NCBI GenBank assembly: GCA_016204005.1
Contig: JACQLS010000030.1
Location: 25,952-89,951, forward strand
Length of the DNA stretch: 64,000 nucleotides
DNA from: Parcubacteria group bacterium
Lineage (GTDB): Bacteria; Patescibacteriota; Minisyncoccia; Phycocordibacterales; UBA2135
Direction of reading: 5' to 3'
The number at the start of each line of letters is the position of its first letter. The stretch's first letter is position 1. The position numbers and the translations under genes were made by a program. Below the pieces are notes generated by a model. That model saw only the letters and a list, made by a program, of their open reading frames with translations. It did not search any database and was not told the DNA's origin. Positions 3,021-46,825 of the stretch are shown piece after piece.

Positions 3021-3022
3021 TT

Positions 3023-3049
3023 AAAACCCCGAGTTAATCGGGGTTTTTC
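3023..3049. terminator. Bidirectional terminator hairpin (aaaaccccga gttaa tcggggtttt) between convergent genes
   Basis: Inverted repeat with flanking A/T runs, read from the sequence. Confidence 0.65.
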
Positions 3050-4029: not shown

Positions 4030-4038
4030 TTTTCCTCC

Positions 4039-5022
4039 TTAGACTGGCGTGTCAATTTTGTGCGGCGGAAGTTGCGGGTGGTAATCTTCCACCTTGAAAT
4101 GCTCGCCACGGAAATCAAAGAAGTTCTTTACGCCGGGGTCGGCCGTTACCGTTGGAAACCGCTCGGCTTGTGTTGCCCCAAGGAACCCCTCTACATCCCT
4201 GATTTGTCTGCGGTAGATGTGGGCGTCTTTGATGATGTACACAACCTTGTCGATGCTATAGCCAGTTTCTGCCGACAACATGAGCGGAAGAATAATACCG
4301 TGTTGGAAGAGATTGAAAGCAAGCCCCACGGGCGCGTCACAACTCCATTGCGTGTGAATATACGTACCGCGACCTGTTTTGGTATCGATGCGGATCATCA
4401 TGTCGCCATGACACGGCACCACCACCACCTTCTGTTGTCTGCCAGTGAGTCGGTAGCAGTATTGCGGGACCCACGGAATTGCCTGGTGGGTACGCAATTC
4501 AGGCCGCTCTTTGATTTGCTGAAGCATTGCCTTAATCTGGTCAAAAGAAGTTCCGTCGCTCATTGGGAAACTGCGATATGCAGGTCCGTATGACCCAGGC
4601 CCCAAATCACCAGGGGGAAGGCCGCGCTTTGCGCACTTCTCGGGAGTTACCCACGGTGCCCACCAGGGGCAGCCGAACGCCTTTAGTTCCTCATGGGTCC
4701 GCGCGCCGTGCATGAAGGCAATGATTTCCCCAGTACCCATTGAGAAGCCCGAACGTCCGGTCTTCGGGTTGGGTGTAACGATATCCCGTTCTGTGACAAG
4801 GGGTGCTCCGTTCGAGAGATCAAATTCCATGACGTGGCCAAAGATCGTAAGGCGTTCCTCATCCATTCCTGACGGCATCCATTTGCCATCCCGCAGAATT
4901 CGATACAGTAGAGTGCGGTATTGCGCATCAGGCGTACGTTTGTCAAAAGGAAGCATATCAATCATTCTTCGCTCCACTTCGCAGGTCTTCCCACAGCGTA
5001 TGTTTTTTTGGAATAAGGTCAA
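4039..5022 (-). CDS. thyA: Thymidylate synthase (ThyA) with N-terminal extension and insertions; true start possibly the internal Met at 4965
   Basis: Aligns to E. coli ThyA: ERLTIFGHVMEFDLSNGAPLVTERDI, GDLGPGSYGPAYRSF, VVVPCHGDMM (catalytic PCH) and TQWSCDAPVGLAFNLFQ (LYQRSCD...PFNIASY). The stop abuts the folA start, the usual thyA-folA arrangement. Confidence 0.8.
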   Translation of the reverse strand: MTLFQKNIRCGKTCEVERRMIDMLPFDKRTPDAQYRTLLYRILRDGKWMPSGMDEERLTIFGHVMEFDLSNGAPLVTERDIVTPNPKTGRSGFSMGTGEIIAFMHGARTHEELKAFGCPWWAPWVTPEKCAKRGLPPGDLGPGSYGPAYRSFPMSDGTSFDQIKAMLQQIKERPELRTHQAIPWVPQYCYRLTGRQQKVVVVPCHGDMMIRIDTKTGRGTYIHTQWSCDAPVGLAFNLFQHGIILPLMLSAETGYSIDKVVYIIKDAHIYRRQIRDVEGFLGATQAERFPTVTADPGVKNFFDFRGEHFKVEDYHPQLPPHKIDTPV

Positions 5023-6740: not shown

Positions 6741-6830
6741 AGGATCGGACATATCTTGAAAAAATATTGCAACGGTAGGCCTAAAACAAGGCCTTTTTGT
6801 GTAATGTCTAAAAATTGGTACTATTTGACT

Positions 6831-9800: not shown

Positions 9801-10391
9801 GAAACATGGCCCAAATATGAACCAAGGTTTCCGATTTGGCCAAACCCGATGGCGCTTTTTCACCGCATTTTCCGGTCACACGGCGATATAAAGATTCTTG
9901 AAGACATGGCAGAGGTACGACACATCGTGTCCGTTGCTCTCGAAGCGCGTGCAAGCGCGGGCATTAAGGTGCGTCAACCCCTCGGGAAACTCTCTGTTAA
10001 AAGCAAAAAAACAAAAATCGTCGGCAATGAAGATCTTCTCACGTTAATTAAGGATGAGGTAAACGTAAAAGAGGTCGTGTTCGATTCGTCTATCAGAGAT
10101 GATGTCGAGCTCGACACGGAAATAACCGAAGAGCTAAAAGAAGAGGGGGCACTCCGCGATCTTATTCGTGTTGTTCAGGATTTGCGCAAGAAAGAAGGTT
10201 TGAATCCCGGTGACAACGCTGTTCTCTTGGTTACTGCGGGCGTTTCGGAACAGCAGTTTATAAAGAAATTCGAAGATGAGCTCAAAGATTCGACAACAGT
10301 TGAGATGGTTGAATTTGGCACCGAGATGCGCGGTGAAGAAGTGAAGGTAGATAACTTTACGTTTAACTTGAAGCTAAAAGCTAAAAGCTAA
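6831..10391 (+). CDS. ileS: Isoleucine--tRNA ligase carrying an inserted histidine-phosphatase (PGAM-like, RHGE) domain between the catalytic core and the anticodon-binding region
   Basis: PPFANGLPHYGH (HIGH), KMSKRLKNYPEP (KMSKS) and the N-terminus MSDEQ...LEREILRFW are typical of IleS. Residues ~500-720 contain LMRHGEARSN...SPLERTKETA...IVSHADPLWAL, which are histidine-phosphatase signatures. The ORF track start is 6756 (TTG); 6831 matches homolog N-termini. Confidence 0.85.
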   Translation: MSDEQNSQKKSVADLEREILRFWRDNKIFEKSLAKKSPKGEYTFYDGPPFANGLPHYGHILAGVLKDAIPRFQTMRGYHVARRWGWDCHGLPVEYEIEKELGLKTKREIEEYGIQNFNKKAREAIMRYADDWRQIIPKTGRWVDMDRDYRTMDSSYTESVWWIFKSLYDKGLVYEGFKPMHLCPRCETTLSNFEVSQGYKDITDITVTVRLPLSKEKNTSLLVWTTTPWTLPGNMAAAVNPSVVYAKYRLSDPVEEFVIIAKDRGEEILKDKKYEIVEEFMGNTLVGRAYEPPFSYYKDAPLKHKGNAWKVYGADFVTTTDGTGIVHIAPAFGEDDLNLAKENDIPVVHHVGTDGKFKKEVADFVGESVKPANDLQATDVLILKNLSSRGLLFAKEKIQHPYPHCWRCDTPLLNYAASSWFVQVTAIKDALVSANKKISWVPSDIRDGRFGKWLLGARDWAVSRSRFWGAPIPAWRCQKCERVEIIGSLSELQERSADSGNTFFLMRHGEARSNKEGFVSASVSARNNLTEKGKREVDKAAKFLRRQSIDLIIASPLERTKETAFRTAKNLGLKKDKVIFSDLIRETGVGVFEGKPISEWQSQFSSLEDKFKIRPQGGEHINDIKSRIIPFLYETDRKYTKKNILIVSHADPLWALYMGALGYTEKQAIEVHGRKKDFIKTAEVKKLDFAPLPHDEAYTLDLHRPYIDELKFKCLCGGKMKRVPEVFDCWFESGAMPYGQMHYPFENKDIFDPEKQRGFPAHFIAEGLDQTRGWFYSLLVLGVALFGEPTYKNVITNGLVLAEDGRKMSKRLKNYPEPTDVIEKYGADALRFYLLSSPVVRAEDLRFSEEGVREIQNKVMSRLRNVVSFYHMYAGDTSDGGSVPKSNNVLDTWVRVRLTEVVNKVTEAMEQYELDKAVRPLAEFIDDLSTWYLRRSRDRFKSKDESDRKNAVATTRYVLVETAKLIAPFAPFVAEEVYRSLSPNVESVHLETWPKYEPRFPIWPNPMALFHRIFRSHGDIKILEDMAEVRHIVSVALEARASAGIKVRQPLGKLSVKSKKTKIVGNEDLLTLIKDEVNVKEVVFDSSIRDDVELDTEITEELKEEGALRDLIRVVQDLRKKEGLNPGDNAVLLVTAGVSEQQFIKKFEDELKDSTTVEMVEFGTEMRGEEVKVDNFTFNLKLKAKS

Positions 10392-15781: not shown

Positions 15782-16114
15782 ATGTCGAAAAACGACTCTC
15801 GCCACGAAGACATTGAAAGCCTGGCTTCAGTTGGCGCCCTGGTGAACGGGCTCCCGCATGAAGGCGAAGAAGAGTATGATAGGAGAAAACGAGCGCTGAA
15901 GAGACAATTTGGTAAGCTTTCTTCTCGCGAACTTCGCGCAAAGAGGAGAAAAATCGGTATACAACTGTTATCCGATTTACTGTCTCTGGACGCTGAAGGG
16001 CAGAAGAAGCTCAAGCGTCTTTCGACTGAAAGACTTCGCGCAAAGTCGAAAAAGATAGCGGAAAAAACCCTCGCTCAACTGGAGGAGCCAGCACATGAAC
16101 ACGCGTCAATATAA
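15782..16114 (+). CDS. Hypothetical K/R-rich small protein (110 aa)
   Basis: ORF with a good promoter and SD; no recognisable domain; predicted coiled-coil/basic. Confidence 0.45.
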   Translation: MSKNDSRHEDIESLASVGALVNGLPHEGEEEYDRRKRALKRQFGKLSSRELRAKRRKIGIQLLSDLLSLDAEGQKKLKRLSTERLRAKSKKIAEKTLAQLEEPAHEHASI

Positions 16115-16496
16115 ACCTGAGCAACTTGAGACGTTGCGGCAACTCCGCAGCACTATTCAGCAATATGGAATGCACATTGCATCGAAGCCGTTTGCTATCT
16201 TCACCCTTCGAGCTGCAAAGCGAAAGCATCCGCTTGAATTCGTCTGTGCGTCACCAAGCGATCACCCGGTCTTCAATCAGGCCGCCATCGTCCGCTTGTA
16301 CCGCGGAAAGGTACGCATTCAGTTCTTCTATGCGAATACATGGCCTCGTCCCATAACGAGGGCTCTTGTTAAGGAATTCGGCAAGCGGGTAGAGTTTGCT
16401 GAGAAGTCCATATGGGGCCACCGCGAGCTCCTTGGAGAGAAGGCAAGGACCTGGAAGGAGTACGCGACTCCAAGTGAGGTACAGTCTTTTGTATAA
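16095..16496 (+). CDS. Hypothetical protein (133 aa), overlaps the upstream ORF by 20 nt
   Basis: ORF only; no recognisable domain. Confidence 0.4.
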   Translation: MNTRQYKPEQLETLRQLRSTIQQYGMHIASKPFAIFTLRAAKRKHPLEFVCASPSDHPVFNQAAIVRLYRGKVRIQFFYANTWPRPITRALVKEFGKRVEFAEKSIWGHRELLGEKARTWKEYATPSEVQSFV

Positions 16497-28898: not shown

Positions 28899-29480
28899 AT
28901 GGACAACGCCTACATTTTTATCGGCCGTTCCGGATGCGGCAAAGGAACACAAGCAGAGCTTTTGAAAGCCTATCTTGAAAAGAAAAATCCCGGGCAAAGG
29001 GTCATATGGTTTGGCACCGGGGAACGGTTCAGGACGTTTCTTAAAGAACCTGGACATACACAGGATATTGCTCGCGGTTATGTTGAAAGAGGCAAGCTCT
29101 CCCCTGAATTCTTGGCGATTCATATCTGGTCTCATTTTTTTATTGAGGATATTGTTGGCGGCGAAAGTGTCATCTTTGACGGCACGCCAAGAAAACTGAA
29201 TGAAGCGCGTGTGCTTGACGACGCCCTCGAGTTTTATGGCGCGAAGGTTTCGGTGATTTTTATAAATGTTTCTCGAGAGTGGGCGCGAGAACGTTTGCTC
29301 GGGCGAGGAAGACAGGATGACACAGAAGAATACATTAAAAATCGACTTGATTGGTTTGAAAGTGACGTTGCAGAGACGCTGGCTTTCTATAAGGACTCAA
29401 AACATGCCTTTCTCGAGATTAATGGCGAACAGCCAATACCAAAAGTACACGAGGATATCGTGAAGCAGCTTGAAGCGTAA
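28899..29480 (+). CDS. adk: Adenylate kinase
   Basis: IFIGRSGCGKGTQAELL P-loop; start at the internal Met of track ORF 28821. Confidence 0.85.
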   Translation: MDNAYIFIGRSGCGKGTQAELLKAYLEKKNPGQRVIWFGTGERFRTFLKEPGHTQDIARGYVERGKLSPEFLAIHIWSHFFIEDIVGGESVIFDGTPRKLNEARVLDDALEFYGAKVSVIFINVSREWARERLLGRGRQDDTEEYIKNRLDWFESDVAETLAFYKDSKHAFLEINGEQPIPKVHEDIVKQLEA

Positions 29481-29490
29481 CGTATCAGTA

Positions 29491-30261
29491 ATGGCAATCT
29501 TTAGAAATGAGCAAGATATAGAGATTCTCCGAGAAGCCGGTCGCCGGCTTGCTTTTGTCGTGGGAGAGGTAGCGAAAAAAGCAGTTCCCGGAGTTTCCGA
29601 AGAAGCACTCGATCTCTACGCAGAGGAGTTAATCCTCAAGGGGGGAGACAAGCCGGCGTTTAAGGGATACCGACCTTCTGGCGCCCGCGCTCCTTACCCG
29701 TCGACGATTTGCATTCAGACGAACGATAAAGTGGTGCACGGCATTCCGACCGGCTACATCCTTAAAGAGGGCGACATCGTTGTCATAGATACCGGGCTCG
29801 AGCATAAGGGTTTCTTTACCGACATGGCAATCACCATCCCTATAGGAAAAGTCGATGCCGCCGCAAAGAAACTGATAACGACAACACGCGACGCGCTCTA
29901 CGCGGGGATCAAGGAAGCCCGTGCAGGTAATCGCCTCGGAGACATTGGCGCTTCTGTTGAAGCGGTAGTCAAGAAAACAGGATTCTCAATTGTCCCCGAG
30001 TTTGGAGGGCATGGTATCGGGAAGAAACAGCATGAGGACCCCTTTGTTGCCAATTACGGAAGAAAGAAAACCGGACCCCTTCTTGAAGAAGGCCTTGTCA
30101 TCGCCATTGAACCTATCGTCAATGAAGGTTCTCCGGAGGTGATCTTCGAAAAAGACGGCTACACCGTGCGTACCAAAGACGGAAAACGAAGCGCGCAGTT
30201 TGAACACACAATCCTTATTACCAAAGGGGATCCGGAAATCATCACAGACCTAAAAAACTAG
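29491..30261 (+). CDS. map: Methionine aminopeptidase type I
   Basis: MAIFRNEQDIEILREAGR... metal-binding D/D/H/E/E pattern; follows adk as in spc/alpha operons. Confidence 0.85.
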   Translation: MAIFRNEQDIEILREAGRRLAFVVGEVAKKAVPGVSEEALDLYAEELILKGGDKPAFKGYRPSGARAPYPSTICIQTNDKVVHGIPTGYILKEGDIVVIDTGLEHKGFFTDMAITIPIGKVDAAAKKLITTTRDALYAGIKEARAGNRLGDIGASVEAVVKKTGFSIVPEFGGHGIGKKQHEDPFVANYGRKKTGPLLEEGLVIAIEPIVNEGSPEVIFEKDGYTVRTKDGKRSAQFEHTILITKGDPEIITDLKN

Positions 30262-30311
30262 TACACATTCTCCCATCGACTATTCTGCCATCACTACGTA
30301 TACTATAAGGA

Positions 30312-33044
30312 ATGGCAGTTGAAAGAGCCCCCATCCCGCAGCCGTTTACCACACCAGATGCAGAACTCGCGTACTTGCGGGAACGTCTTCGTCTAAAAGA
30401 GCGCGAGCTTGAGACCCGTGGTGAGAGAGATGCTTTAGCGAGAGCTGCAACGGAAACAGTGCAGGAACACGCCGCCCGATCTCCCGAAGAAGTACTTCCA
30501 AAAGAACAAGTGCTCCCCAAGGAGGAAGCTGAAGCTATAGCACTCAATCTTTCACCAGAGAAGCATGATGATCGCATGGGCGAGTTCCTCGGACTCCTTC
30601 AAGAGCGGGGTATTAAAAATGCCCTTTCGGTTATTGAGTCACTCAAGAGTCCTCATCTTGCAGACGATTTTCATCGTTTTTTGATTGCATATGTGAAAGG
30701 AGGGCATTCTGTCTATGGGTTGAAAGAGCGCGGAGAGTTATGGAAGTCACTGCGAATGACGCTCTACGAAGTTTTCTTGCCAGAAGCTGTGAAAGAAGAA
30801 CTTAAGGGGAAGACACTCAAAGAACTCCTCTCTTCTATGGAGCAGTTCTTCGCGGGAATGGCATCTATTTCCGACGTTTCCCCTGATACTACACGCCACT
30901 GGAGCGCTGAGTTGGCGCTCGCAGAGTCTGGGTCGGAAGTTGTTTTTTATGTTGCTGTTCCTGACACAAAGAAAGATCTTTTTGAAAAACAACTTCTTTC
31001 TGTCTTTCCTAAGGCAGAACTTTACGAACAAAAAGATGACTTCAACATCTTTAACGAGGGGGGGATTGCCGTTGGTGCTGTTGGGACATTTAAGCGGGAG
31101 GCGATTCTTCCCCTCAAGACATACGACACCTTTGACTACGATCCTTTGAATATCGTTCTCAACACGTTTTCAAAACTGGCAAAAGACGGAGAAGGCGCGG
31201 CGATACAATTTGTTTTTGAAGCAACGCCCAACTCACTCGTTGGAGACTATCGGAAGACATTGGAAAAAGTAGAGAAGGGAGCGTCACTCAAAGATGCCTA
31301 CGGCGGATCCTTCACCAAGGAGTTCATCAAGGCTTTTGGCGGCATCATGGGCGACAGTCCAAGTAAGGAGAAAGAGAAGCACGTTGATACCGCGGTTGTT
31401 GAGGCGATCCGCGCGAAAATCGCCGCGCCAATCATAAAAGCAAACATTCGCTTAATAGCTGGAGCTGCCGATTCCGCACGGGCGAAAGAAATTTTGAGTG
31501 ATATGGTGTCCGCATTTCGACAATTTGAAAATACGACAGGAAACACCCTTGTTTTTAAAGAAATGGAAGGCGGCAAAAAAGATGTCCTCTTGAAGTCATT
31601 TTCATACCGCTTATTTAACGAGAGCGAATCATTACCCTTGAACCTCCGTGAGGCGACGACTTTGATGCATCTCCCGTCGGCGGGTATTGAATCATCCCCG
31701 CACTTGAAGCAGGCGAAGAGCGGTGGAGCTCCAGCCCCCGTCGCGCTTCCCACAAGCGGCACCCTCTTGGGAGTGAACCACTATAGGAACACCGAAACAA
31801 AAGTATACCTTACGAAAGAAGACCGACTACGACACTTCTACGTCATCGGTCAGACGGGTACAGGAAAGACGACATTATTGAAAAATATGATCGTGCAGGA
31901 CATCCAAGATGGCGACGGTGTCTGCATGATTGACCCCCACGGCACGGACATTCAAGATGTCCTGGGGCTTATTCCCGATCATCGGAAGGAAGACGTCATC
32001 TATTTCGACCCGAGCAATTTGAATCGCGTCATGGGGCTTAACATGCTCGAGTATGACCCACGTTTTCCAGAGCAGAAGACCTTTGTTGTCAACGAGCTTT
32101 TTAGCATTTTCCAAAAGCTCTATGGGGCGGTACCGGAGTCTATGGGGCCCATGTTCGAACAGTACTTCAGAAATGCGACACTCCTTGTTCTTGAGGACCC
32201 TGAATCGGGGAATACACTCCTAGATGTGTCACGCGTGCTCTCGGACGCTACCTTCCGAAAAGCAAAACTTTCGAAATCCAAAAATCCCGTGATCAATCAG
32301 TTCTGGGAGGAAATCGCGGAGAAAACAGGCGGAGAAGCGGCGCTTTCAAACATCGTTCCCTACATCACGAGCAAATTCGACATCTTCACCGCGAACGACT
32401 TTATGCGACCAATCATTGCCCAGTCGAAATCGTCCTTCAACTTCCGCGAGATCATGGACTCTCGAAAGATTCTTCTTGTCAATCTTGCGAAGGGCCGGCT
32501 TGGAGCAATCAACTCGAACCTCCTCGGTCTCATTATTGTCGGAAAGATCCTCATGTCGGCCCTTTCGCGTGTCGACATCGTCGGGAAGGGTGAGGTGGCG
32601 CCGTTTTATCTCTACATCGATGAGTTCCAAAACGTCACGACAGATTCCATCTCAACTATTCTCTCTGAAGCTCGCAAGTATAAGCTTTCGCTCACCGTTG
32701 CCCACCAGTTCATTGCTCAACTCGAGGAAGGTATTCGCAACGCAGTCTTTGGAAACGTTGGTTCAATGGCCGCTTTCCGTGTAGGACCGGAAGATGCCGA
32801 ATTTCTAAAGCAGCAATTTACTCCGATTTTTGGAGCCAACGACCTCATGAATATCGACAATTTCAACGCGTACGTGCGCTTACTCGCGAACGGCCGTCCA
32901 GCGAAGCCGTTTAATATTCGCATTCCTCCGAAGCCGGAAGGCAACCCTGCCCAAGCTGAAGTACTAAAAGAGCTCTCCTCGCTCAAATATGGGCGACCGC
33001 GGGAAGACGTTGAGACCGAGATCGCCACTCGCTACAGCCTTTGA
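30312..33044 (+). CDS. Large soluble P-loop ATPase with a C-terminal VirD4/TrwB/TraD-like (type IV coupling protein-like) NTP-binding domain and a ~470-aa N-terminal domain of unknown function; no TM segments
   Basis: RHFYVIGQTGTGKTT (Walker A), IDPHG, LYIDEFQN (Walker B) and VAHQFIAQL (T4CP Q-motif, compare TrwB GLQSTSQL); 910 aa. Confidence 0.6.
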   Translation: MAVERAPIPQPFTTPDAELAYLRERLRLKERELETRGERDALARAATETVQEHAARSPEEVLPKEQVLPKEEAEAIALNLSPEKHDDRMGEFLGLLQERGIKNALSVIESLKSPHLADDFHRFLIAYVKGGHSVYGLKERGELWKSLRMTLYEVFLPEAVKEELKGKTLKELLSSMEQFFAGMASISDVSPDTTRHWSAELALAESGSEVVFYVAVPDTKKDLFEKQLLSVFPKAELYEQKDDFNIFNEGGIAVGAVGTFKREAILPLKTYDTFDYDPLNIVLNTFSKLAKDGEGAAIQFVFEATPNSLVGDYRKTLEKVEKGASLKDAYGGSFTKEFIKAFGGIMGDSPSKEKEKHVDTAVVEAIRAKIAAPIIKANIRLIAGAADSARAKEILSDMVSAFRQFENTTGNTLVFKEMEGGKKDVLLKSFSYRLFNESESLPLNLREATTLMHLPSAGIESSPHLKQAKSGGAPAPVALPTSGTLLGVNHYRNTETKVYLTKEDRLRHFYVIGQTGTGKTTLLKNMIVQDIQDGDGVCMIDPHGTDIQDVLGLIPDHRKEDVIYFDPSNLNRVMGLNMLEYDPRFPEQKTFVVNELFSIFQKLYGAVPESMGPMFEQYFRNATLLVLEDPESGNTLLDVSRVLSDATFRKAKLSKSKNPVINQFWEEIAEKTGGEAALSNIVPYITSKFDIFTANDFMRPIIAQSKSSFNFREIMDSRKILLVNLAKGRLGAINSNLLGLIIVGKILMSALSRVDIVGKGEVAPFYLYIDEFQNVTTDSISTILSEARKYKLSLTVAHQFIAQLEEGIRNAVFGNVGSMAAFRVGPEDAEFLKQQFTPIFGANDLMNIDNFNAYVRLLANGRPAKPFNIRIPPKPEGNPAQAEVLKELSSLKYGRPREDVETEIATRYSL

Positions 33045-33086
33045 TTTGTTTTATACTGTAGGCATTAGTTACACAACGTTTCCATT

Positions 33087-35435
33087 ATGGCAAACTTCGA
33101 AAGACCAATGAGTACTGGAGGAGCTGAAGGTGCCCCCGAAGCACCACGTCAGGCAACTCGGGCAGAAAAAGCGAAGCTTACGCGGCAGATAAACATACTT
33201 GAGCGTCAATTGGAGAAACTCGCACACGAGGACAGGGAGCAGCCCGGAGCACAAGCGGAGCGCGAGAGAATCGGTGCCGAGCGAAACAGGCTTTGGGATT
33301 TGCGGAATCAGATGGATACGGAAGTTGCCTCCTCTGAAGCGGTATTTCCAAACGTACCCATGGGCGAAGGAACTTTTGATGAAGCCGAGAGTGCGCCCCA
33401 AGAAATGCGCGTTGCTGGGGAGACGTACGAAGATACACCCCCTCCTACTCCCGAAACGCTTCGCCCTGACACGCAAGAAAAAGCAGAAGAGCCCAAGGCG
33501 CACTTCTCTTACAAATGGACTGGCCGTAGGACGGGAGAGCCGGGAGAGGCCGAAGAAATAGCAAGAGAGGAAGCGGAGCGCGAGGAAAAGTTAAGGGCTT
33601 TAGGCAAAAAGACCCCCCAAAAAAACAAGGGGGATATTCCCGTGAGGCAGGAACCTTCAGAACCGGTTGTGTGGGATAGTTCAAAGACAACAGGGAGAAG
33701 GACAAAGGGAGAAGAAGCAATTGATAGCAGAGTAACGGCATTCAAAAAAAAGATTCGTGGTATTGCAGATGGTACGATCCCCGTACCTCTTGCGGGAGAA
33801 ACTCCCGCAAGAGAAACACTCACTGCGGAAGAGGAGCCAACTCCTCTCTATGATGCCGCTGTCAGGGAGGGGTATATCAAAGAGGAACTGAAACCGCGCA
33901 GGAGACGCCAAGCGCTCGTTACACCCAAAGCAGATGCGGAGTTTCCAGGAGAAGTGAGCGAAGCAGAAAGACGGCACCTAGAAGAGCTTGGCCGCATGAC
34001 GCCATGGACGGGTGAAGAGTCTCCCGAAGTCGGAAGAGAAATGACCCCAGAGGAGCAAGGAAGGCGATTAGAGGAATGGTTGGGCGAAATGCAGAACTCC
34101 ATTAGGGCTGAAGCAGAAAGGAAAAGCCTCTGGCAGTATATGAGAGGAGCTTCAGAACGTTATGCGAAACTTCCTTTCTATCAAAAAATTGCTGTTGGAC
34201 TCGCTCTTACAGCAGGTGTTGGAAGTGGAGCACTTCTTGGTGGTCCCGCAGGGCTCGCAATCACGGCGGGTGCAATGGGTGCAAAACTTGGTGTTGGTTT
34301 TCTCACATTCCTTGGCACATACGAAGCTGTCGAGTCGTTGGCGGAACGGTCAAGGGAGAGACAAGTAAAGTTTTGGAACAAATACCCTAGAGTTCTTGGC
34401 GCTGTTGCCGGAGCAATCACGGGGGGCATTTCAGCGTACAGTATCGGGCAGGCTCTTGAATGGGTGGCGGACAATTTCGCATCCAGCGCTACCGAAGGTG
34501 CAGCGCGCGTTGCTGTCGAGGCAGCCGACCGGGGAGGCCAAGTAGTGGCAGAAGTCAGACCGGGCCTCGTAGAACCAAAGGTAGTAACTCCGGAGATGCC
34601 TCCTGCGTCAGATTATGCAGAGGGGTCGGGTGTATATGCCGTTGGAGGAGAAGTGGGTTCCCAAGAAAGTGTTGTCCAGATTGGCGCCGAAGCCGCGCGC
34701 ACTATTACAGCAGAAGTTGCGAAGGGTGACACTGTGTGGGGGCTCTTGAAGAACGGATTAGGAGAGAAGCTCGCAGGGCTTTCCCCAGAACAGCAAACCT
34801 ACGTCATTGATGGGCTCAAAGACAAACTTGCGGCGATGACTCCGGCAGAATTGAAGGACCTCGGTATTAAGAGCGGCAACATTGATCGCATCTTCCCTGG
34901 GCAAAAGCTTGATTTCACGTCTCTCCTTGGGGATTCTTCTCTTGTTGAGAAACTTAAAGCTGGAGCAGAAAACCTTACCGCAGAACAGCTACAGAATATC
35001 CGAGAGGGAGGAGTTGCACTACCCCCCACTCCATTAGCTGAGGCGATGGAGGCGCCTACCGTTGAACAAGCAGCCGAGGTTTTGGAAAAGGGGGCTGAAG
35101 TAGTCGTGAATGAAGAGGCTGGATCCGTGGAACACATGGGCACAGAGGTTTTCTTTGATAAGTCGGCAGCGAACATCTATGAGCAAGGCAACGGCGAGCT
35201 CATAGCTTGGGGCGGCACGGATGATGCAAAAGCGGCGCTTGCGGAACGTATTGCGGGGGAAACGGGGAAGCAAGTGCGTGTGGACGCTTCCATGGGTTCT
35301 TACTATGTAACCCCGGAGGGTTCGCGTGTTTCAATAGAAGAAACATTTAAAAGTTTTGGTGATTGGTGGAGTCGCCTTTGGGGGAACATGCCGGAGCCTG
35401 AAGGAGTGGCCACCATGCTTACGCGTAATAAATAG
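33087..35435 (+). CDS. Large acidic protein (782 aa) with E/R-rich N-terminal region, central glycine-zipper hydrophobic segments and a C-proximal LysM-like peptidoglycan-binding motif
   Basis: GDTVWGLLKNGL...IDRIFPGQKLDF (LysM signature); GLALTAGVGSGALLGGPAGLAITAGAMGAKLGVGFL glycine zipper. Confidence 0.5.
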   Translation: MANFERPMSTGGAEGAPEAPRQATRAEKAKLTRQINILERQLEKLAHEDREQPGAQAERERIGAERNRLWDLRNQMDTEVASSEAVFPNVPMGEGTFDEAESAPQEMRVAGETYEDTPPPTPETLRPDTQEKAEEPKAHFSYKWTGRRTGEPGEAEEIAREEAEREEKLRALGKKTPQKNKGDIPVRQEPSEPVVWDSSKTTGRRTKGEEAIDSRVTAFKKKIRGIADGTIPVPLAGETPARETLTAEEEPTPLYDAAVREGYIKEELKPRRRRQALVTPKADAEFPGEVSEAERRHLEELGRMTPWTGEESPEVGREMTPEEQGRRLEEWLGEMQNSIRAEAERKSLWQYMRGASERYAKLPFYQKIAVGLALTAGVGSGALLGGPAGLAITAGAMGAKLGVGFLTFLGTYEAVESLAERSRERQVKFWNKYPRVLGAVAGAITGGISAYSIGQALEWVADNFASSATEGAARVAVEAADRGGQVVAEVRPGLVEPKVVTPEMPPASDYAEGSGVYAVGGEVGSQESVVQIGAEAARTITAEVAKGDTVWGLLKNGLGEKLAGLSPEQQTYVIDGLKDKLAAMTPAELKDLGIKSGNIDRIFPGQKLDFTSLLGDSSLVEKLKAGAENLTAEQLQNIREGGVALPPTPLAEAMEAPTVEQAAEVLEKGAEVVVNEEAGSVEHMGTEVFFDKSAANIYEQGNGELIAWGGTDDAKAALAERIAGETGKQVRVDASMGSYYVTPEGSRVSIEETFKSFGDWWSRLWGNMPEPEGVATMLTRNK

Positions 35436-35444
35436 AAGCAGTTA

Positions 35445-35488
35445 ATTAACTACTACTCACTACTTACTACTAACTACCCACTAATCAT
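35445..35488 (+). repeat. Array of six tandem heptamers (TAACTAC TACTCAC TACTTAC TACTAAC TACCCAC TAATCAT) abutting the ATG of the downstream ORF, which has no SD
   Basis: Read directly from the sequence. Confidence 0.6.
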
Positions 35489-35806
35489 ATGGCACTGCTC
35501 CAAAGTAATCTCCAGAGTAAAATTGCGACCGAACTCGGCGTTGGCAATCTTCCCCCAGAAAGTCAAAAACGCATTATTGCACGACTCGGAGAAATCATCC
35601 TCCAGCGCGCAACAATGAACATTCTGGACGTACTCCCAGAAGAAAAACGCGGTGAGTTTGGCAAACTTGCGGCAGGCGATGACCAGTCGGCAGTAGAAGC
35701 TTTTTTGAAACAATTTGTGCCAAATGCGGACGAACTGGTAAACGCCGCGATTAAGCAAGAAGTGGAAGCGTTCAAGGGGTTTAAGGCACAACTTGCCGCG
35801 AGCTAG
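35489..35806 (+). CDS. Hypothetical small protein (105 aa)
   Basis: ORF only; no recognisable domain. Confidence 0.4.
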   Translation: MALLQSNLQSKIATELGVGNLPPESQKRIIARLGEIILQRATMNILDVLPEEKRGEFGKLAAGDDQSAVEAFLKQFVPNADELVNAAIKQEVEAFKGFKAQLAAS

Positions 35807-35839
35807 ACCGACTTTTCAATACAACGGGGGGATGTTAGA

Positions 35840-36652
35840 GTGGAATCATCCGCTCTAACTTTGTTTAGTATGAAAGATTCTTTCGAGAAACCATCACAAC
35901 AAGAGGTTGATCCTGATCGGGAACCTTACCCCGAAATCGAGGAGCTCAAGGATCCCCTTGAGAATATCTTCAACCAACTCGCCGAAGGCATCGAGAACGG
36001 CGAATGGTATGACCTCATTGTCGGCGATGATGCCTCGGGCCGCATCCCGACCCTTATTGTTGCTGGAGTGCTTAAAGAAATCGCAGAAGCCCGCGGACTT
36101 GAAAAACCGGATATGCTCTTTTTTGCGGGGGTGAAAGACGTAGCGCTTAAAAAGAAGCGAAAGAGAGAAATTGTGGAGGTACTAAAACAACATGAGAAAT
36201 GGAGTGGAACGGCGCACAAACGAGCGCTTTTGGTTACTGACACCATCGCTTCGGGAGAGACAATCAGAGACATTACTGACGCGTTAAAGGAGCAAGATAT
36301 TTTCTTTAAAATCATTACAATAGGCACCACTTTTGGAGTTCCCAAGACCGAGGAGCAGGTGAAGGAGTCTCGTGAATATATATTAGGAGGCAAGATCATC
36401 TCTGGCATGCGTGGTACCCCTAAAATTTACCAGATGCATACTTATGGTGGTGTGCAAAAGGAGGACAAAGCGAGCATTCATGCTTTGCCGATAAGAACAG
36501 CCTTATCGCAGACGGGGAGTGATTATCCTCCAAACAGCTTCCAAAAAAACATCAACGAAGCCCGCGCCGACAGCAAAGAAATCGCCCACGAAATCGCGGA
36601 GAAGTATTTAGCAGAACACCCCCAAAAAGCTACGGGGAGAAAAGCGGCGTAA
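35840..36652 (+). CDS. Phosphoribosyltransferase (PRTase type I fold)-like protein
   Basis: YDLIVGDDASGRIPTLIVAGVL and LLVTDTIASGETIRDI resemble the PRPP-binding loop (hhhhDDhhxTGxT, here D-T variant). Confidence 0.45.
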   Translation: MESSALTLFSMKDSFEKPSQQEVDPDREPYPEIEELKDPLENIFNQLAEGIENGEWYDLIVGDDASGRIPTLIVAGVLKEIAEARGLEKPDMLFFAGVKDVALKKKRKREIVEVLKQHEKWSGTAHKRALLVTDTIASGETIRDITDALKEQDIFFKIITIGTTFGVPKTEEQVKESREYILGGKIISGMRGTPKIYQMHTYGGVQKEDKASIHALPIRTALSQTGSDYPPNSFQKNINEARADSKEIAHEIAEKYLAEHPQKATGRKAA

Positions 36653-36664
36653 CCATACTATACT

Positions 36665-37648
36665 ATGATTTGGAATCCACACGAAGGTCGCGGATCTAAT
36701 GATCGCTTAGACCAAATAATGCGCGAGAAGCGCAAGGCGCGTCTGGAACAAGAAGCGGCGGCGGAGGAGGCTCGTGTCTTAGAGCTTGCATCTGAAAAGG
36801 CCGAGAAGAGGCTCACGGAAGATCAGATTGATTTTACAAACCCGGAGTTTCGAGGAGTTTTTACTGATGCGGCAGTAGAAAAAGATATGCAATACCTCGC
36901 AAGAGTCGAAGCGGCCATCAAAGAAGGTGAAACAGAAAGGAGCCGGGACACATTTCGCCTCGCGAGAATTCTCGAAGCAATCATTCACGAGCAAACAGAG
37001 CTTGCCAACTGGCTTGGGTCTGGTGCTACTACCATTAAGACTTCACGGCTCGACGATATTGCCAATGGCGTGGATGAGGTGGTGGAGTTTAGAAAAGATG
37101 AAGGTCACACGGCGCACCTTGGTCTTGGTATTGACGTAACGCTCGGCACCCACTTTCTTGGACAGAAGTTTGAAAGGATCAGAAAGGAAATTGAGAGTGG
37201 GAAGCTTGCACAGGTGAGATACTTCAAATCAAGTGATGGGAGCTTCGTCGGAACATTACCACTCTTGCCTCGCGTTATTGTTGGGGCTGAACGGCGGCAC
37301 ATCACAGAGCTTGCGCGGCTTTGGGTGAACAATAAAAATAAAGAACTTGCGGAACATCCGTTTAAAAAAGTTTTGATTGCAGAGATCATTGAGCAGCTCA
37401 GAGCCTTTAGAGAATATGCCCGTTTTGAGGCTATGAGGCAGACTCAACCAGCTGAAAGAGAGAGAAGGGAGGGGGTGATTCGGGCATATGAACGGGCGCT
37501 CCTCATTGCCGAAGGAGTAAAGCGGGGGGAGAAAGCGGCCCTCTCGAAATTGCCTGAAGGAAGCCGTGACGCGGAGTGGGGCAATAACGACCGTGTCCTC
37601 CTCGCCATCCGCCAAGAACTCAAGTCGTTTGGAGCGGGGGTGAGTTAA
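36665..37648 (+). CDS. Hypothetical protein (327 aa)
   Basis: ORF only; charged N-terminus; no recognisable domain. Confidence 0.4.
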   Translation: MIWNPHEGRGSNDRLDQIMREKRKARLEQEAAAEEARVLELASEKAEKRLTEDQIDFTNPEFRGVFTDAAVEKDMQYLARVEAAIKEGETERSRDTFRLARILEAIIHEQTELANWLGSGATTIKTSRLDDIANGVDEVVEFRKDEGHTAHLGLGIDVTLGTHFLGQKFERIRKEIESGKLAQVRYFKSSDGSFVGTLPLLPRVIVGAERRHITELARLWVNNKNKELAEHPFKKVLIAEIIEQLRAFREYARFEAMRQTQPAERERREGVIRAYERALLIAEGVKRGEKAALSKLPEGSRDAEWGNNDRVLLAIRQELKSFGAGVS

Positions 37649-37694: not shown

Positions 37695-38294
37695 ATGTCA
37701 GATTATAAAAAGTTCAAAGAGGAGAGAACATTTGTTTTAATTAAGCCTGACGGCGTTCGCAAGGGGCTTACCGGGGAAATTATCAAGCGTTTTGAACAGC
37801 GGGATTTGAAGATCGTTGCCCTCGAGATGTTCCAGCCTACAAGGAAGCAGATCGACGATCACTACCCAAAGGAACAGAAGTGGGTTACGCGGTTGGGTGA
37901 AAAATCTCTTTCCACTTATAGCAAATACGGCATTGATCCGGCGAAAGAACTCGGCACCAATGATGCTGCAAAAATTGGGGAGATGGTGCGAGAGTGGCTC
38001 GTTGACTACATGACTTCGGCACCGCTTGTACGCATGGTCGTAGAAGGCGTGCATGCCGTTGATATGGTCAGGAAAATTGCCGGTCCCACCATACCCTCTA
38101 TGGCGGACATGGGAACTATTCGCGGCGACTTTTCGGCCGACTCTCCGGCTATCGCGAATACGGAAAAGCGGGCAGTCATGAACCTGATTCATGCTTCTGA
38201 AACCCCAGAAGAAGCGATGCACGAGATAAAGCATTGGTTTGGCGAGAAACCGCCCATATTCTCCTACAGTCGTTTTTGCATTGATCTCTGGTAG
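37695..38294 (+). CDS. ndk: Nucleoside diphosphate kinase (with internal insertion)
   Basis: ERTFVLIKPDGVRKGLTGEIIKRFE and NLIHASET (active-site His). Confidence 0.8.
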   Translation: MSDYKKFKEERTFVLIKPDGVRKGLTGEIIKRFEQRDLKIVALEMFQPTRKQIDDHYPKEQKWVTRLGEKSLSTYSKYGIDPAKELGTNDAAKIGEMVREWLVDYMTSAPLVRMVVEGVHAVDMVRKIAGPTIPSMADMGTIRGDFSADSPAIANTEKRAVMNLIHASETPEEAMHEIKHWFGEKPPIFSYSRFCIDLW

Positions 38295-42166: not shown

Positions 42167-43333
42167 TTAGGCGCGGATGCGCGCAATCTCGTAGTTTGAA
42201 TACATCTTATTCCCAGTTACATCTTCTAGCACCGGGAGGAATGGCGGAAGTGAAACTTTACTCGTCTCCCTAGTCAGCTCAACCTCTAGGAGGAGAAGGC
42301 CGGTAGCCGGGTCTCTGAATACATCGAGTTCAAAGTATTGGTTTTCCCACGCGAAACAAAAACGATGTTTTTGTATAACCGCGAACCTGGGGTCGCGAAC
42401 GCGAGCAAGTTCGCCGTACATTTCGGGTGAAATGTGTTTTTCCGTTTCCGCGCGAGCAAATGTCCCAGGAATTTCCCACTTGTGTGTACGATAGTATACA
42501 TATGTACCGTCTTGGCCGCGACGGCGAATGCGTCCTTCATTACCCGGAGCTTCACCCGTCAAATACATCTGTTCAATCTGAACACACTCAAATGGGATCC
42601 GCAGTTCTTTGAGTAGCCGCGGATTAAACGACGGATCGATGAGATATTTTCTCTCAATCTCGATCGGCACCGGGATGCCGAGGACAACGCAGACCTCTTG
42701 GAAGAGTCGATCAATCTTTTCTTCAAAGCCCGTTGAGTTATCAATGGATCGCCAGTGTGGGTGCCCCATCCATGCCTCAAGCGTCTCTTTGTCTCTCTCC
42801 CGAGCTTCTCCCAACGTTGTTTCTTGGCGAGCGGTGTTATTTGCAACCGTGTAGAACGCCTCTGCTCCAAATGCCGCCGTGACGAGATGGAAGACGGCAT
42901 TATAGGGAAGATCGCGCAGGTGGGGGATTTTGAGACCCGACTCGTGCGCGAGTTGTTTGAACAGATCCGCTTTTGCGTACCCGAGTATGTCCATAAAACC
43001 GCGGTCGCAGATCACCACCTTTTTCTTGGCTTTGGATCGAGCCACATAGCGACGGTAGTTGAGTTCCCGTGCAAGTGTCTCTTCAAAGACACAACGTTGG
43101 AATGTTTGAAAGTCCAATCCATTTGCATCCGGCTTAATCCCCGCATTTATGAGAAGTGTCGGCACCTCGGGCGGCATAAAAACCGTGAACCCGCGGTCCA
43201 AGAGCTTCTGTTCAGTGCGGCACAAAGCCGTCGTCTTGCCCGCGCACGGCCCGCCAGTAAGAACCATGATCGGAACGTCTTCTGGCCTCAAGTGTTTTAG
43301 TATCTCTGCCTCAGAACTGAAGTGAGGAAGCAT
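42167..43333 (-). CDS. Two-domain protein: N-terminal P-loop NTPase/kinase-like domain (AAA_28/NadR-like or uridine-kinase-like) fused to a C-terminal CYTH (triphosphate tunnel metalloenzyme) domain
   Basis: VLTGGPCAGKTT (Walker A). CYTH hallmarks: IEIERKYL (ExExK), FELDVF and LEVEL. Start placed at MLPHFSS; the track ORF extends to 43606. Confidence 0.6.
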   Translation of the reverse strand: MLPHFSSEAEILKHLRPEDVPIMVLTGGPCAGKTTALCRTEQKLLDRGFTVFMPPEVPTLLINAGIKPDANGLDFQTFQRCVFEETLARELNYRRYVARSKAKKKVVICDRGFMDILGYAKADLFKQLAHESGLKIPHLRDLPYNAVFHLVTAAFGAEAFYTVANNTARQETTLGEARERDKETLEAWMGHPHWRSIDNSTGFEEKIDRLFQEVCVVLGIPVPIEIERKYLIDPSFNPRLLKELRIPFECVQIEQMYLTGEAPGNEGRIRRRGQDGTYVYYRTHKWEIPGTFARAETEKHISPEMYGELARVRDPRFAVIQKHRFCFAWENQYFELDVFRDPATGLLLLEVELTRETSKVSLPPFLPVLEDVTGNKMYSNYEIARIRA

Positions 43334-43441
43334 GAATGTCACCCAGATCTCCTTTCTTTCTGCATCGTAACCCGCCTCACACACTTTGGGAAGCCTTCGA
43401 AAATTGAAAAAGATGTGAAATCGGGATACTCTAAACCAGAG

Positions 43442-45433
43442 ATGAAAACAACCAAAAGAACATCCATGAAGAGCAAAAGCGCCTTTCGAAGAAGCGAGCT
43501 TGACGGGAACGTCAAGCCGACAGACGATTTTTTCCAGTTTGCAAATGGCAAGTGGGCGGAGCGACACGCTATTCCCGCAACAGAAAGCATATGGGGACCC
43601 TTCCACATTTTGTGGAAGAAAAACCTTGAGCGTCTTCGCATCCTTCTTGAAGATATTTCAGAAGGTAGAGTAGAAGAAGGGGGGAGAGAGTTAGTGCTTC
43701 TTCGCGATTATTACCGAACAGCGATGGATCGCGCAATGGCCAATGCTCTGGGCTCTAGTCCCTTGACGCCCTTCTTTGATGACGTGAACGCCGTGGCGAC
43801 GATTCAGGATATTGTGGCGCTCATGGCACGTTTCCGTAAAGCTGGCATCGGTGGGCCTTGGACTGTCACCGCCTACAGGGACTTGAAGGAGGGAGATCTC
43901 GTTAAACTTTCGTTTGGGCAAGGAGGTTTGGGCCTGCCAGAGAAGACCTACTATCTTTCAGATGATCCCGCCACGCGTAAAGTACGAGATGCCTACCGCA
44001 AGCATGTAGAGAAAATGTTTCGCCTGGCGAACATCGAAGGAGATGCTCGAGAAAGCGCCGATACTATCATGGAGATAGAAACAGCACTTGCTCGGGTATC
44101 AAGAACAAACGCTGAATTGCGGCAGATTGAGAACATTTACAACGAGAGGACAATACCGGCTCTTGAGCGCGAAGTACCCGGCGTGAATTGGCGGATGTAT
44201 CTTTCGGAACTCGGCGCTCCGCCTTTGGACACAGTCAATATTGAGGTGCCGGAATTCATGTCGACAGTTTCGAGTCTCTTCCAAAGTATTCCGCTTCAGA
44301 AGTGGAAAGTGTATTTTTCCTGGAGAATAATCACTTCGGGGGCAAGCTTCTTGAGCGATGCGTTCGCCCGCGAACAGTTTAATTTCTGGGGCAAAGTTGT
44401 TTCGGGGACGAAGAGAATGCAACCGCGGTGGCGTAGGGTCGCCCACGACATTGACGGCACGGTTTTGGGAGAAGTGCTCGGCAAATTCTATATCCAACGT
44501 CACTTCAGTGAGAGCGCCAAAGACTATGTGCGCACAATGGTTGCTTACGTAAAGGAGGCATTCAAGGAACGCGTTAGTTCTCGCCCATGGATGGGGGAGG
44601 CGACAAGGGCAATGGCCATTCGGAAGCTCGATGCCGTGAAAGAAAAGGTGGGGTATCCAGACACGTGGCGGGATTCTTCTCGGCTTCAGCTTACCAACGC
44701 TTCATACTACGAAAATAGCGTTCAAGTGTCTCGCTTTGAATTTGAGGACATGCTCTCCAAGGTGGGCAAACCGGCAGATCGGCAGAAATGGTTTTGTTCG
44801 CCGCAAACGGTTAATGCCTTTTTCGAGGAGGAGCTTGTATCGATGACATTTCCCGCAGGAATTCTGCAGCCACCGTTCTTTGACCCTGAAAGAGATGAAG
44901 CGGTGAATTTTGGCGCAATCGCATCAATCGTAGGGCACGAACTCACGCATGGCTTCGACGATCAAGGAAGAAAGTTCGATGAGAACGGTCATCTCGAGGA
45001 TTGGTGGACCCCGGAAGACAAAGAAGCATTTTTGGAACGCACAAGAGCGTTCGAGGCTCAAATTGGGACGTACCGCATTATTGATGACGTCTACGCAAAT
45101 GGCGCTCTCACTATCGGTGAAACGGTTGCGGACTTAGGCGGGCTCGTGCTTGCTTTCTACGCGATGCAAAAGTTCTTTGCGGAAAAAGGCCGTCCTCGTC
45201 TGGTCAATGGACTCACTCCAGAGCAGCGCTTCTTTCTTGGGTATGCGTTAATAGAGCGCTCAAAGTTCCGCGAGGAGCGCTTGCGCGAAATTGCTATTAC
45301 CGATCCGCATCTGCCATCGTATTGGCGTGTGAATGGTGTGCTTTCCAATATGTCGGAATTCTTTGACGCATTTAATGGGGGTCCTGGCGACAAGATGTGG
45401 CGCCCGGAAAACGAGCGAATAGAGATTTGGTAA
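43442..45433 (+). CDS. Peptidase M13 family (neprilysin/PepO-like) zinc metalloendopeptidase, apparently cytoplasmic
   Basis: HELTHGFDDQGRKFDENGHLEDWW (HExxH ... M13 block) and DFFQFANGKWAE N-terminal M13 motif; no signal peptide. Confidence 0.7.
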   Translation: MKTTKRTSMKSKSAFRRSELDGNVKPTDDFFQFANGKWAERHAIPATESIWGPFHILWKKNLERLRILLEDISEGRVEEGGRELVLLRDYYRTAMDRAMANALGSSPLTPFFDDVNAVATIQDIVALMARFRKAGIGGPWTVTAYRDLKEGDLVKLSFGQGGLGLPEKTYYLSDDPATRKVRDAYRKHVEKMFRLANIEGDARESADTIMEIETALARVSRTNAELRQIENIYNERTIPALEREVPGVNWRMYLSELGAPPLDTVNIEVPEFMSTVSSLFQSIPLQKWKVYFSWRIITSGASFLSDAFAREQFNFWGKVVSGTKRMQPRWRRVAHDIDGTVLGEVLGKFYIQRHFSESAKDYVRTMVAYVKEAFKERVSSRPWMGEATRAMAIRKLDAVKEKVGYPDTWRDSSRLQLTNASYYENSVQVSRFEFEDMLSKVGKPADRQKWFCSPQTVNAFFEEELVSMTFPAGILQPPFFDPERDEAVNFGAIASIVGHELTHGFDDQGRKFDENGHLEDWWTPEDKEAFLERTRAFEAQIGTYRIIDDVYANGALTIGETVADLGGLVLAFYAMQKFFAEKGRPRLVNGLTPEQRFFLGYALIERSKFREERLREIAITDPHLPSYWRVNGVLSNMSEFFDAFNGGPGDKMWRPENERIEIW

Positions 45434-45605: not shown

Positions 45606-46055
45606 ATGGCACTCGTGAGTAACAAGAAAGCGTATTTTAATTATGAAATCCAGGAAAAACTGGAGGCGGGTATTGAATTACTCGGTCATGAAGTGAAGAC
45701 CTTGAAAGGCGGTCGCGGCTCGCTTGAGGGGGCATATGTGATTACACGCGGAAATGAAATGTTCTTGGTGAATATGCATATTCCACCCTACCAAGTGGGC
45801 AATGTCGGGAAGGACTACGACCCCTATCGGCTTCGAAAACTGTTGTTAAATAAGAAGGAAATCGCTTTACTCACAGGTGTTGAAAAACAGGGGGGGTTGA
45901 CAATCATGCCACTTTCCGTGTATAATAAAGGAAACAAAGTCAAGGTTGAGATAGGCGTTGCGCGCGGAAAGAAAAAATACGACAAGCGCGAAACATTAAA
46001 GCGCCGTGCTACAGAGCGCGACGTAGCAAGAGAAACAAGGTCGCGTTTGAATTAG
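45606..46055 (+). CDS. smpB: SsrA-binding protein SmpB
   Basis: KAYFNYEIQEKLEAGIELLGHEVKTLK...DPYRLRKLLL. Confidence 0.88.
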   Translation: MALVSNKKAYFNYEIQEKLEAGIELLGHEVKTLKGGRGSLEGAYVITRGNEMFLVNMHIPPYQVGNVGKDYDPYRLRKLLLNKKEIALLTGVEKQGGLTIMPLSVYNKGNKVKVEIGVARGKKKYDKRETLKRRATERDVARETRSRLN

Positions 46056-46440: not shown

Positions 46441-46825
46441 GGGGATGATCGGCTTCGACAAGGGGCGTACTTTGAAACGCGCAGGTAGAGCTGGGATAAC
46501 TCTTAAAAAGGCCCCAAACCATAAGTGCAAACAAATTGCGCTCAATCGTTTCGCCTTACTTTAAGGCGAGCGACTTCGTGTTCGTATACGCTTAAGCGGC
46601 GAACGTGAACGCTCCCACTTTTAATTTCTGGTAGAGAGACGGGAGTGTCATACCACCAGGATAGGCATGCAGATTGCTTCGACTGCTCCGCTGAAACCAA
46701 GAAGCTCGATGCAGTTCGGTTTTGTATGTTTCAGACGCTCTGCATTTAAATCAAAAAACACACTACACCTGTAGATCCGTTTCAATTTTCTCTTTGCATG
46801 CGGGTTCAATTCCCGCCATCTCCAT
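46441..46825 (+). ncRNA. ssrA: tmRNA (transfer-messenger RNA), standard one-piece
   Basis: 5' end GGGGAUGAUCGGCUUCGACAAGGGG matches the tmRNA 5' consensus. 3' end GCGGGTTCAATTCCCGC-CATCTCC-A gives the T-arm plus acceptor 3' strand. The acceptor pairs GGGGAUG/CAUCUCC with a G3:U wobble (alanine identity). It sits immediately downstream of smpB. Confidence 0.85.

Follow-up and report, generated by a model that had tools for sequence, protein, structure and literature searches.

Why is map, the last gene of the S10-spc ribosomal protein cluster, followed in a member of the Paceibacteria by the gene of a large VirD4/TrwB-like ATPase and not by infA? Paceibacteria (Parcubacteria, candidate phyla radiation) are ultra-small and among the most abundant uncultured bacteria. 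The locus lies in a stretch of 64,000 nucleotides from a Parcubacteria group bacterium (assembly GCA_016204005.1, contig JACQLS010000030.1, positions 25,952 to 89,951), referred to here as the window. The original prediction, made from the sequence of the window alone, described the five genes between map and ndk as an accessory block that replaces the infA-rplQ half of the ribosomal superoperon. Our overall reading, which we consider probable, is instead that the locus has the normal layout of Paceibacteria, and that the 910-aa ATPase is an orphan motor resembling type IV coupling proteins (T4CPs), accompanied by partner genes and followed by two unrelated neighbours.

The map-ATPase junction across Paceibacteria

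Relatives of the ATPase were collected by a pattern scan with one genome per species, and the best 80 loci were retrieved together with 10 kb on either side. Such relatives are encoded in at least 596 species-level genomes, and identity to the window ATPase is 49-58% in the loci examined. The map gene lies upstream on the same strand at 32 of the 66 loci whose upstream flank spans 3 kb or more (median gap 440 nt), ndk lies downstream at 28 of the 65 loci whose downstream flank does so (median gap 130 nt), and both genes flank the ATPase at 23 of the 55 loci with both flanks. Loci repeatedly show secY-adk-(extra genes)-map-ATPase-ndk-DUF2238-betaCASP-SLOG, then rplT and infC on the opposite strand, and the genomes with this order carry the labels Nomura-, Taylor-, Campbell- and Kaiserbacteria. 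In the closest relative, L001 (GCA_016204045.1, 87% identity), the order of all five genes is identical, with the phosphoribosyltransferase (PRTase)-fold gene duplicated. Because the map-ATPase order is common to dozens of species and to L001, it is a layout of the lineage and not an insertion in this genome. An ATPase gene after map is therefore the normal chromosomal arrangement in Paceibacteria. The annotated families that recur as its neighbours are housekeeping genes (many neighbouring open reading frames carry no annotation), and the ATPase itself is a core Paceibacteria gene. Across the map-linked loci, mean identity to the window proteins is 63% for secY, 52% for the ATPase, 49% for map, 44% for rplO and 37% for adk, so that the ATPase is better conserved than map, rplO and adk.

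The genes that canonically continue the superoperon are missing from the junction everywhere it was examined. InfA, RpmJ, RpsM, RpsK, RpsD, RpoA and RplQ of E. coli found no counterpart in the 64-kb window by tblastn (best E=0.06), as the original prediction had stated, and infA, rpsM, rpsK, rpsD, rpoA and rplQ were absent within 10 kb at 82 of 82 related loci (tblastn, E<=0.01). Compared with the canonical S10-spc-alpha superoperon, the genes from rpsJ to rplO and then secY-adk-map are complete and collinear here, whereas the alpha part from infA to rplQ does not follow map, either in this genome or in any of 34 map-containing loci. Since all examined relatives that contain map have infA-rplQ more than 10 kb away from it, the interruption after map is a trait of the lineage and nothing was 'replaced' by the ATPase and its neighbours. 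This part of the original prediction thus has to be given up.

Other genes do occur between adk and map in related genomes. At L046, L064, L068 and other loci, this interval holds one to three tandem copies of a cysteine-rich protein of ~570-590 aa (cluster c16) and a ~228-aa protein (c15). Such insertions are found in many Nomurabacteria-type genomes and mark the tail of the spc operon as a hotspot for lineage-specific genes. In one Nomurabacteria genome (L081, 4816-6120) a second, truncated ATPase paralogue of ~496 aa with 33% identity lies upstream of map, which fits the roughly two T4CP homologues per genome given in the available text of a recent survey (PMC12102498).

An ATPase without a membrane anchor

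The Pfam families DUF87, T4SS-DNA_transf, TraG-D_C and TrwB_AAD_bind all match the ATPase above their curated cut-offs at aa ~490-835, and Pfam, NCBIfam and structure comparisons agree with its earlier description as VirD4/TrwB-like. In the AlphaFold model (pLDDT 82.5) the protein is divided into an all-helical part (aa 15-129), an alpha/beta DUF8128 core (aa ~140-460) and a P-loop motor (aa ~484-875). With intact Walker A and Walker B motifs, it is predicted to be a motor of the HerA/FtsK/VirD4/VirB4 superfamily. Within this superfamily the specific models fall short: TIGR03743, TIGR03754 and NF045973 score 52, 39 and 34 bits against NCBIfam cut-offs of 366, 648 and 250, the VirB4 model TIGR00929 reaches 19.5 bits against 643, and the full-length VirB4/TrwK structure 7o42 aligns with the ATPase over 308 residues only.

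The N-terminal half sets the protein apart. No hydrophobic segment was found in aa 1-700, the sole match (aa 730-758) being a core helix of the ATPase domain, and the AlphaFold2 (AF2) model of this half is soluble, helical plus alpha/beta. The protein therefore lacks the anchor in the membrane by which canonical coupling proteins are defined. Its N-terminal half gave no sequence match in PDB or Pfam, the Pfam copy searched being one that excluded PF26449. This domain (PF26449, DUF8128) is precomputed at the N-terminus of the identical public protein P0001, of all 120 listed homologues and of the L001 protein, and its fusion to a DUF87/T4CP ATPase over ~900 aa is the architecture present here. 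In the alignment of 82 sequences, numerous polar positions of the N-terminal half are invariant, among them HD (85-86) and PHxxDDFHRF (114-123), which may form a metal-binding site. Both motifs lie in the stretch encoded by 30312-30716 (aa 1-135), which is all-helical and lineage-specific, with no counterpart in the Bacillus phage and plasmid relatives described below. On its sequence features, the family is an anchor-less, DUF8128-bearing and chromosomally fixed relative of the coupling proteins.

The P-loop domain of the ATPase resembles that of VirD4, TrwB and TraD (PF02534, PF10412, PF12696) in matching the T4CP profiles; the ATPase differs from them in having a soluble DUF8128 extension of ~470 aa in place of N-terminal transmembrane helices, in scoring below the NCBIfam equivalog cut-offs, and in being a chromosomal core gene beside ribosomal genes and not beside a relaxase or a type IV secretion system (T4SS). 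The central DUF87 domain is shared with the HerA-NurA helicase. The N-terminal and accessory domains of HerA, FtsK, VirB4 and DndH, however, are not matched by the ATPase, and no NurA, VirB3 or Dnd partners occur at its locus.

The closest full-length relatives outside the lineage come from Bacillus phages and a plasmid. PHROG 5156 matches aa 209-905 (E=1.7e-74), and the structural model as a whole is matched by gp156 of Bacillus phage G (Foldseek E=1e-42, 845 columns) and by a protein of Bacillus phage JL (E=3e-39, ~845 columns). The phage G protein adjoins the VirB-like gp155. On the 65-kb B. subtilis plasmid CP120602.1, a 913-aa DUF87 protein (BLASTP E=8e-26, ATPase aa 225-907) sits upstream of TcpC/TcpD/TcpE-like conjugation genes. 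These proteins of 825-913 aa have the same two-part build of DUF8128 core and ATPase, but identity is ~20%, they lack the first ~200 residues with HD and PHxxDDFHRF, and they belong to mobile elements, beside VirB-like or TcpC/D/E-like genes, and not to a housekeeping locus. Based on these neighbourhoods, the two-part architecture is found next to secretion genes on mobile elements of monoderms, which agrees with the monoderm (MPF-FATA) origin proposed for Patescibacteria T4SS genes in the available text of the survey (PMC12102498). VirD4 of pLS20 was considered as the plasmid homologue and rejected, as that T4CP has 786 aa and two membrane helices (PMC8557374), whereas the homologue has 913 aa and is encoded on another plasmid.

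Within Patescibacteria, the available text of Quinonero-Coronel et al. (2025; PMC12102498) reports 5,713 VirD4-type T4CP homologues in 2,918 genomes, 148 of them near virB4, and its authors consider exaptation possible. Like the ATPase, these orphan homologues are VirD4-type; there are about two per genome, and nearly all are far from virB4. The ATPase very probably belongs to this same gene population. The survey, as far as its available text goes, deals with counts and with distance to virB4 and does not mention that such genes lie after map, lack an anchor, carry DUF8128 or have partner genes. No paper on DUF8128 or DUF5663 was found in the searched literature, nor was one that describes this combination of genes, in line with the original prediction. 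What is new is thus the map-adjacent position, the soluble architecture and the three-gene unit described below, none of which was found in the searched literature, while the T4CP homologues as such were already counted in the 2025 survey.

Downstream genes and the layout of the window

The gene after the ATPase encodes a 782-aa protein (p782) that begins with a charged, low-complexity region of ~360 aa, continues with glycine-zipper or glycine-rich membrane segments (aa ~368-460) and has an acidic C-terminal half ending in a conserved domain of ~100 aa (aa 676-778). The original prediction saw in it a LysM/glycine-zipper protein. The glycine-rich membrane segment (aa 368-460) stands, while LysM (PF01476) does not: the whole protein has no match at E<=0.01, and the excised segment scores 15.0 bits against 20.9 and covers profile positions 29-40 only. 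Only two homologues of p782 were found among 5.8 billion proteins. At a second class of loci, without map, the ATPase is followed by a large protein of 580-1400 aa, then by a DUF5663 protein and by FKBP, tgt and uvrB, which are clearly housekeeping genes. These large proteins look unrelated to one another by BLAST, yet they share a charged N-terminal region, glycine-rich membrane helices and the C-terminal motif PH(I/V)Y...GG(T/S)...V.VDAS. Hidden Markov models (HMMs) built from the post-ATPase proteins of other genomes, with p782 left out, match p782 over its full length (E=7.6e-14) and in its C-terminal domain (E=2.3e-6).

The third gene of the window block encodes a 105-aa DUF5663 protein (PF18908, E=1.2e-8, 35.9 bits against 23.7), and ATPase, p782-family protein and DUF5663 protein occur together at 14 other ATPase loci, including L001. 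The leave-out matches, the shared architecture and the recurrence of DUF5663 thus define a conserved three-gene unit, which is present in this genome and in one sub-lineage. A hairpin directly follows this unit, and its counterpart in L001 (15384-15412) differs by a compensatory exchange of one base pair (T-A to C-G) and by one G-C pair turned into G-U. Transcripts of the ATPase-p782-DUF5663 unit are probably terminated or processed at this hairpin, and it would probably split the five-gene block into two transcription units. The heptamer array noted earlier in front of the 105-aa frame is real, as confirmed by Tandem Repeats Finder (TRF). As a functional repeat it was rejected, since L001 carries a different G-poor leader at this place, and it is treated here as a low-complexity leader.

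Two further genes lie between this unit and ndk. The first encodes a 270-aa protein whose earlier description as PRTase-like is supported by its predicted fold only; the score for Pfam Pribosyltran (PF00156) remains below the cut-off (16.2 bits against 26.3). Its AF2 model (pLDDT 86, pTM 0.86) has OPRT, HGPRT and APRT as top Foldseek matches (E~1e-4, TM score 0.33-0.48), and of the 25 PDB matches at E<=0.001, 23 are PRTases or PRT-related (TM score 0.26-0.48, E~1e-4). This structural comparison supports a divergent PRT fold. The putative phosphoribosyl pyrophosphate (PRPP) loop LLVTDTIASGET has one acidic residue against two in the canonical loop, and the family, sporadic and with 14 homologues, has an invariant GDDASGRIP motif. 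Elsewhere its members adjoin ftsZ/ftsA, aspS/scpA or glycosyltransferases, and among the genomes examined the gene is linked to the ATPase only here and in L001. The second gene codes for 327 aa. Its family has no name but is large, with 1456 cluster representatives at E<=1e-3 and 245 at E<=1e-30, and among the other ATPase loci it is near the ATPase in L001 only. No credible Pfam or PDB match was obtained for it, with two isolated matches in 40 members and a best PDB E of 0.065, and a 40-sequence profile found no relationship to Pfam or PDB entries either. Both genes are unrelated neighbours and not members of the unit. The five genes do not make up a single module, although the link between the ATPase and the membrane protein p782 is real.

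The coordinates are collected in the table. From map to ndk, all genes are on the plus strand with intergenic gaps of 12-53 nt, and the reading frames match the five co-directional genes of the original prediction exactly, in number and length. Upstream, Pfam confirms rpsL, rpsG, fusA, tuf, rpsJ, rplC, rplD and rplW, and rplB-rplO, secY, adk and map are confirmed via Pfam, NCBIfam (for map, TIGR00500 at 271 bits, cut-off 171) and an annotated relative that is collinear, which bears out the earlier statement that the cluster is canonical up to secY-adk-map. Promoter-like sites in the region are not more numerous than expected from shuffled sequence, so the one in the map-ATPase spacer is weak evidence of a promoter. 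Between fusA and tuf in the str operon, two small open reading frames of 110 and 133 aa without Pfam match were seen (15782-16496, plus strand).

Table. Features of the map-ndk region, in positions of the window
Feature	Position	Strand	Basis
map, type I methionine aminopeptidase; last gene of the S10-spc cluster, left boundary	29470..30261	+	Pfam Peptidase_M24 E=1.2e-45
Promoter-like site TCGACT-17-TATACT in the 50-nt map-ATPase spacer	30276..30304	+	consensus match only
ATPase, 910 aa	30312..33044	+	open reading frame map, Pfam
Walker A GQTGTGKT, ATPase aa 513-520	31848..31871	+	aa 513-519 (G513-K519) invariant in 82 homologues
Walker B YLYIDE, ATPase aa 766-771	32607..32624	+	D770 and E771 invariant in 82-sequence alignment
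p782, 782 aa	33087..35435	+	open reading frame map
(ACTACTC)x5, G-free leader just before the DUF5663 start codon	35452..35487	+	TRF
DUF5663 protein, 105 aa	35489..35806	+	open reading frame map, Pfam
11-bp hairpin, then TTTGTTT; directly after DUF5663	35834..35859	+	fold -23.4 kcal/mol, z=-3.1
PRTase-fold protein, 270 aa from GTG 35840	35840..36652	+	public annotation: start 35870, 260 aa
327-aa protein	36665..37648	+	open reading frame map
ndk, right boundary	37695..38294	+	Pfam NDK E=1.8e-37

Several further genes of the window deserve mention in their own right. An isoleucyl-tRNA synthetase of 1211 aa (6756-10391, plus strand) carries a histidine-phosphatase domain (PF00300, E=3.7e-30) at aa 529-695, an unusual insertion that lies within the class I catalytic domain. 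A homologue of indoleamine 2,3-dioxygenase (111-1391, plus strand; PF01231, E=2e-59) is unexpected in the reduced metabolism of the candidate phyla radiation. It is followed by a nucleotide-salvage cluster (2175-5022) of dCMP deaminase (2175-3020, plus strand), a DHFR-HIT fusion (3049-4029, minus strand) and thymidylate synthase (4039-5022, minus strand). Beyond ndk, a 479-aa protein (42167-43606, minus strand) contains AAA_28 and, as a weaker match that stays under the Pfam cut-off, CYTH (E=5e-4); a homologous AAA_28 gene lies at the equivalent place in L001. The smpB gene (45606-46055, plus strand) precedes a tmRNA (46441-46824, plus strand) with the tag peptide ANKLRSIVSPYFKASDFVFVYA, after which no convincing open reading frame was found in the ~400 nt up to 47222. 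An 832-aa open reading frame (59174-61672, plus strand) has no Pfam match, and no identical public gene call was found for it.

Possible role of the ATPase and rival explanations

Most likely, the ATPase is an orphan motor resembling coupling proteins that became fixed as a housekeeping gene. It would assemble as a ring that, at the cytoplasmic membrane, recruits or moves its macromolecular cargo (DNA or protein) at the expense of ATP. Canonical coupling proteins reach the membrane with N-terminal helices of their own; here p782 would provide the membrane contact in trans, and the fast evolution of p782 could reflect exposure at the cell surface. Perhaps the ATPase serves the chromosomal monoderm-type T4SS of these epibionts; alternatively, exaptation may have given it a different task in the handling of DNA or proteins.

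Several observations weigh against this interpretation. The 64-kb window that holds the ATPase contains no T4SS genes and no T4SS or relaxase domains. Ring assembly and anchoring in trans are inferences. Matches to the NCBIfam equivalog models of TraD and VirD4 are confined to the Walker A stretch (aa ~487-581) and lie far below the cut-offs, and attempts to identify the fold of the N-terminal domain gave none. At ~40 loci ndk directly follows the ATPase and no p782-like or DUF5663 genes lie within 10 kb, so the partnership may not be obligatory, or the partners may be located elsewhere. Finally, the one T4CP homologue examined genetically in a Saccharibacterium (S. epibionticum ML1), which may or may not be an orthologue of the ATPase, is non-essential for epibiotic growth according to the available text of the survey (PMC12102498).

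The principal rival, which we hold to be somewhat unlikely, is a housekeeping DNA translocase that is FtsK- or HerA-like, independent of secretion and engaged in chromosome segregation, repair or the processing of imported DNA. Such a role would explain the fixation beside genes of translation and nucleotide metabolism. However, no NurA-like nuclease, HAS barrel or FtsK gamma domain was detected for the ATPase or at its locus, the closest full-length relatives occur in the secretion-type contexts of phages and plasmids, and the conserved partner p782 is a membrane protein. The accessory island of the original prediction, a conjugation remnant or fragment of an integrative and conjugative element inserted at the map-infA junction and displacing the alpha-operon genes, has in its favour an ATPase domain family typical of conjugative elements and the missing continuation after map. 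It has become very improbable, as the junction is identical in dozens of species and collinear in L001, the ATPase is better conserved than map, and the block neither differs in GC content from its flanks (0.48-0.53) nor shows an integrase, relaxase, flanking tRNA or flanking repeat around it; the only RNA genes seen in the window, one tmRNA and one tRNA, are both distant.

Two other roles suggested by the gene content fare no better. If the ATPase and the PRTase-fold protein acted as ComFA and ComFC, the block would be a competence module pulling DNA inward. ComFC is indeed a PRTase-fold protein, and the two genes stand in one cluster here and in L001. Organisms of the Paceibacteria type moreover depend on imported nucleotides (PMC12857230). 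Yet in the other genomes examined the PRTase-fold gene is unlinked to the ATPase and found in unrelated contexts, so that this small sample points to independent occurrence of the two genes. Moreover, a hairpin stands between the ATPase unit and the PRTase-fold gene, the structures most similar to the PRTase-fold protein are OPRT, HGPRT and APRT, and the ATPase is not a DEAD-box helicase, all of which makes this role highly unlikely. An anti-phage defence system built around a HerA-, DndH- or mad8-like ATPase, also raised by the original prediction, is scarcely credible either. PADLOC returned no complete system, its partial matches (mad8, HerA, DndH) concern only the generic ATPase domain and none of the four neighbours, and no effector partner such as a nuclease, Sir2 or methyltransferase is present. 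Defence systems are also patchy, whereas the ATPase is syntenic and keeps its 49-58% identity across the loci examined. Searches found neither infA-rpoA after map in the relatives nor HMM matches that would place the five genes in known pathways, and L001 keeps the same order.

A stronger version of the coupling-protein interpretation can be formulated, and we consider it unlikely. The DUF8128-ATPase, the hypervariable glycine-zipper surface protein and the DUF5663 protein would together form a machine specific to Paceibacteria, derived from a coupling protein, essential, used for the exchange of DNA or protein with a host and equipped with a metal-dependent activity in its N-terminal part. 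If this were true, a machine derived from the coupling protein of monoderm conjugation, possibly co-transcribed with the ribosomal protein operon, would have to be added to the biology of these organisms, and the HD and PHxxDDFHRF motifs would mark an enzymatic, metal-dependent activity that is absent from any known coupling protein.

For the lineage as a whole, the lost map-infA junction is a trait of Paceibacteria and not a local rearrangement. The count of orphan T4CPs in Patescibacteria is now tied to a testable set of genes, namely an anchor-less ATPase with a new N-terminal domain and its two partners. Better conserved than map and encoded in dozens of species right after the ribosomal operon, this conjugation-type motor makes a strong candidate for a function that defines the lineage.

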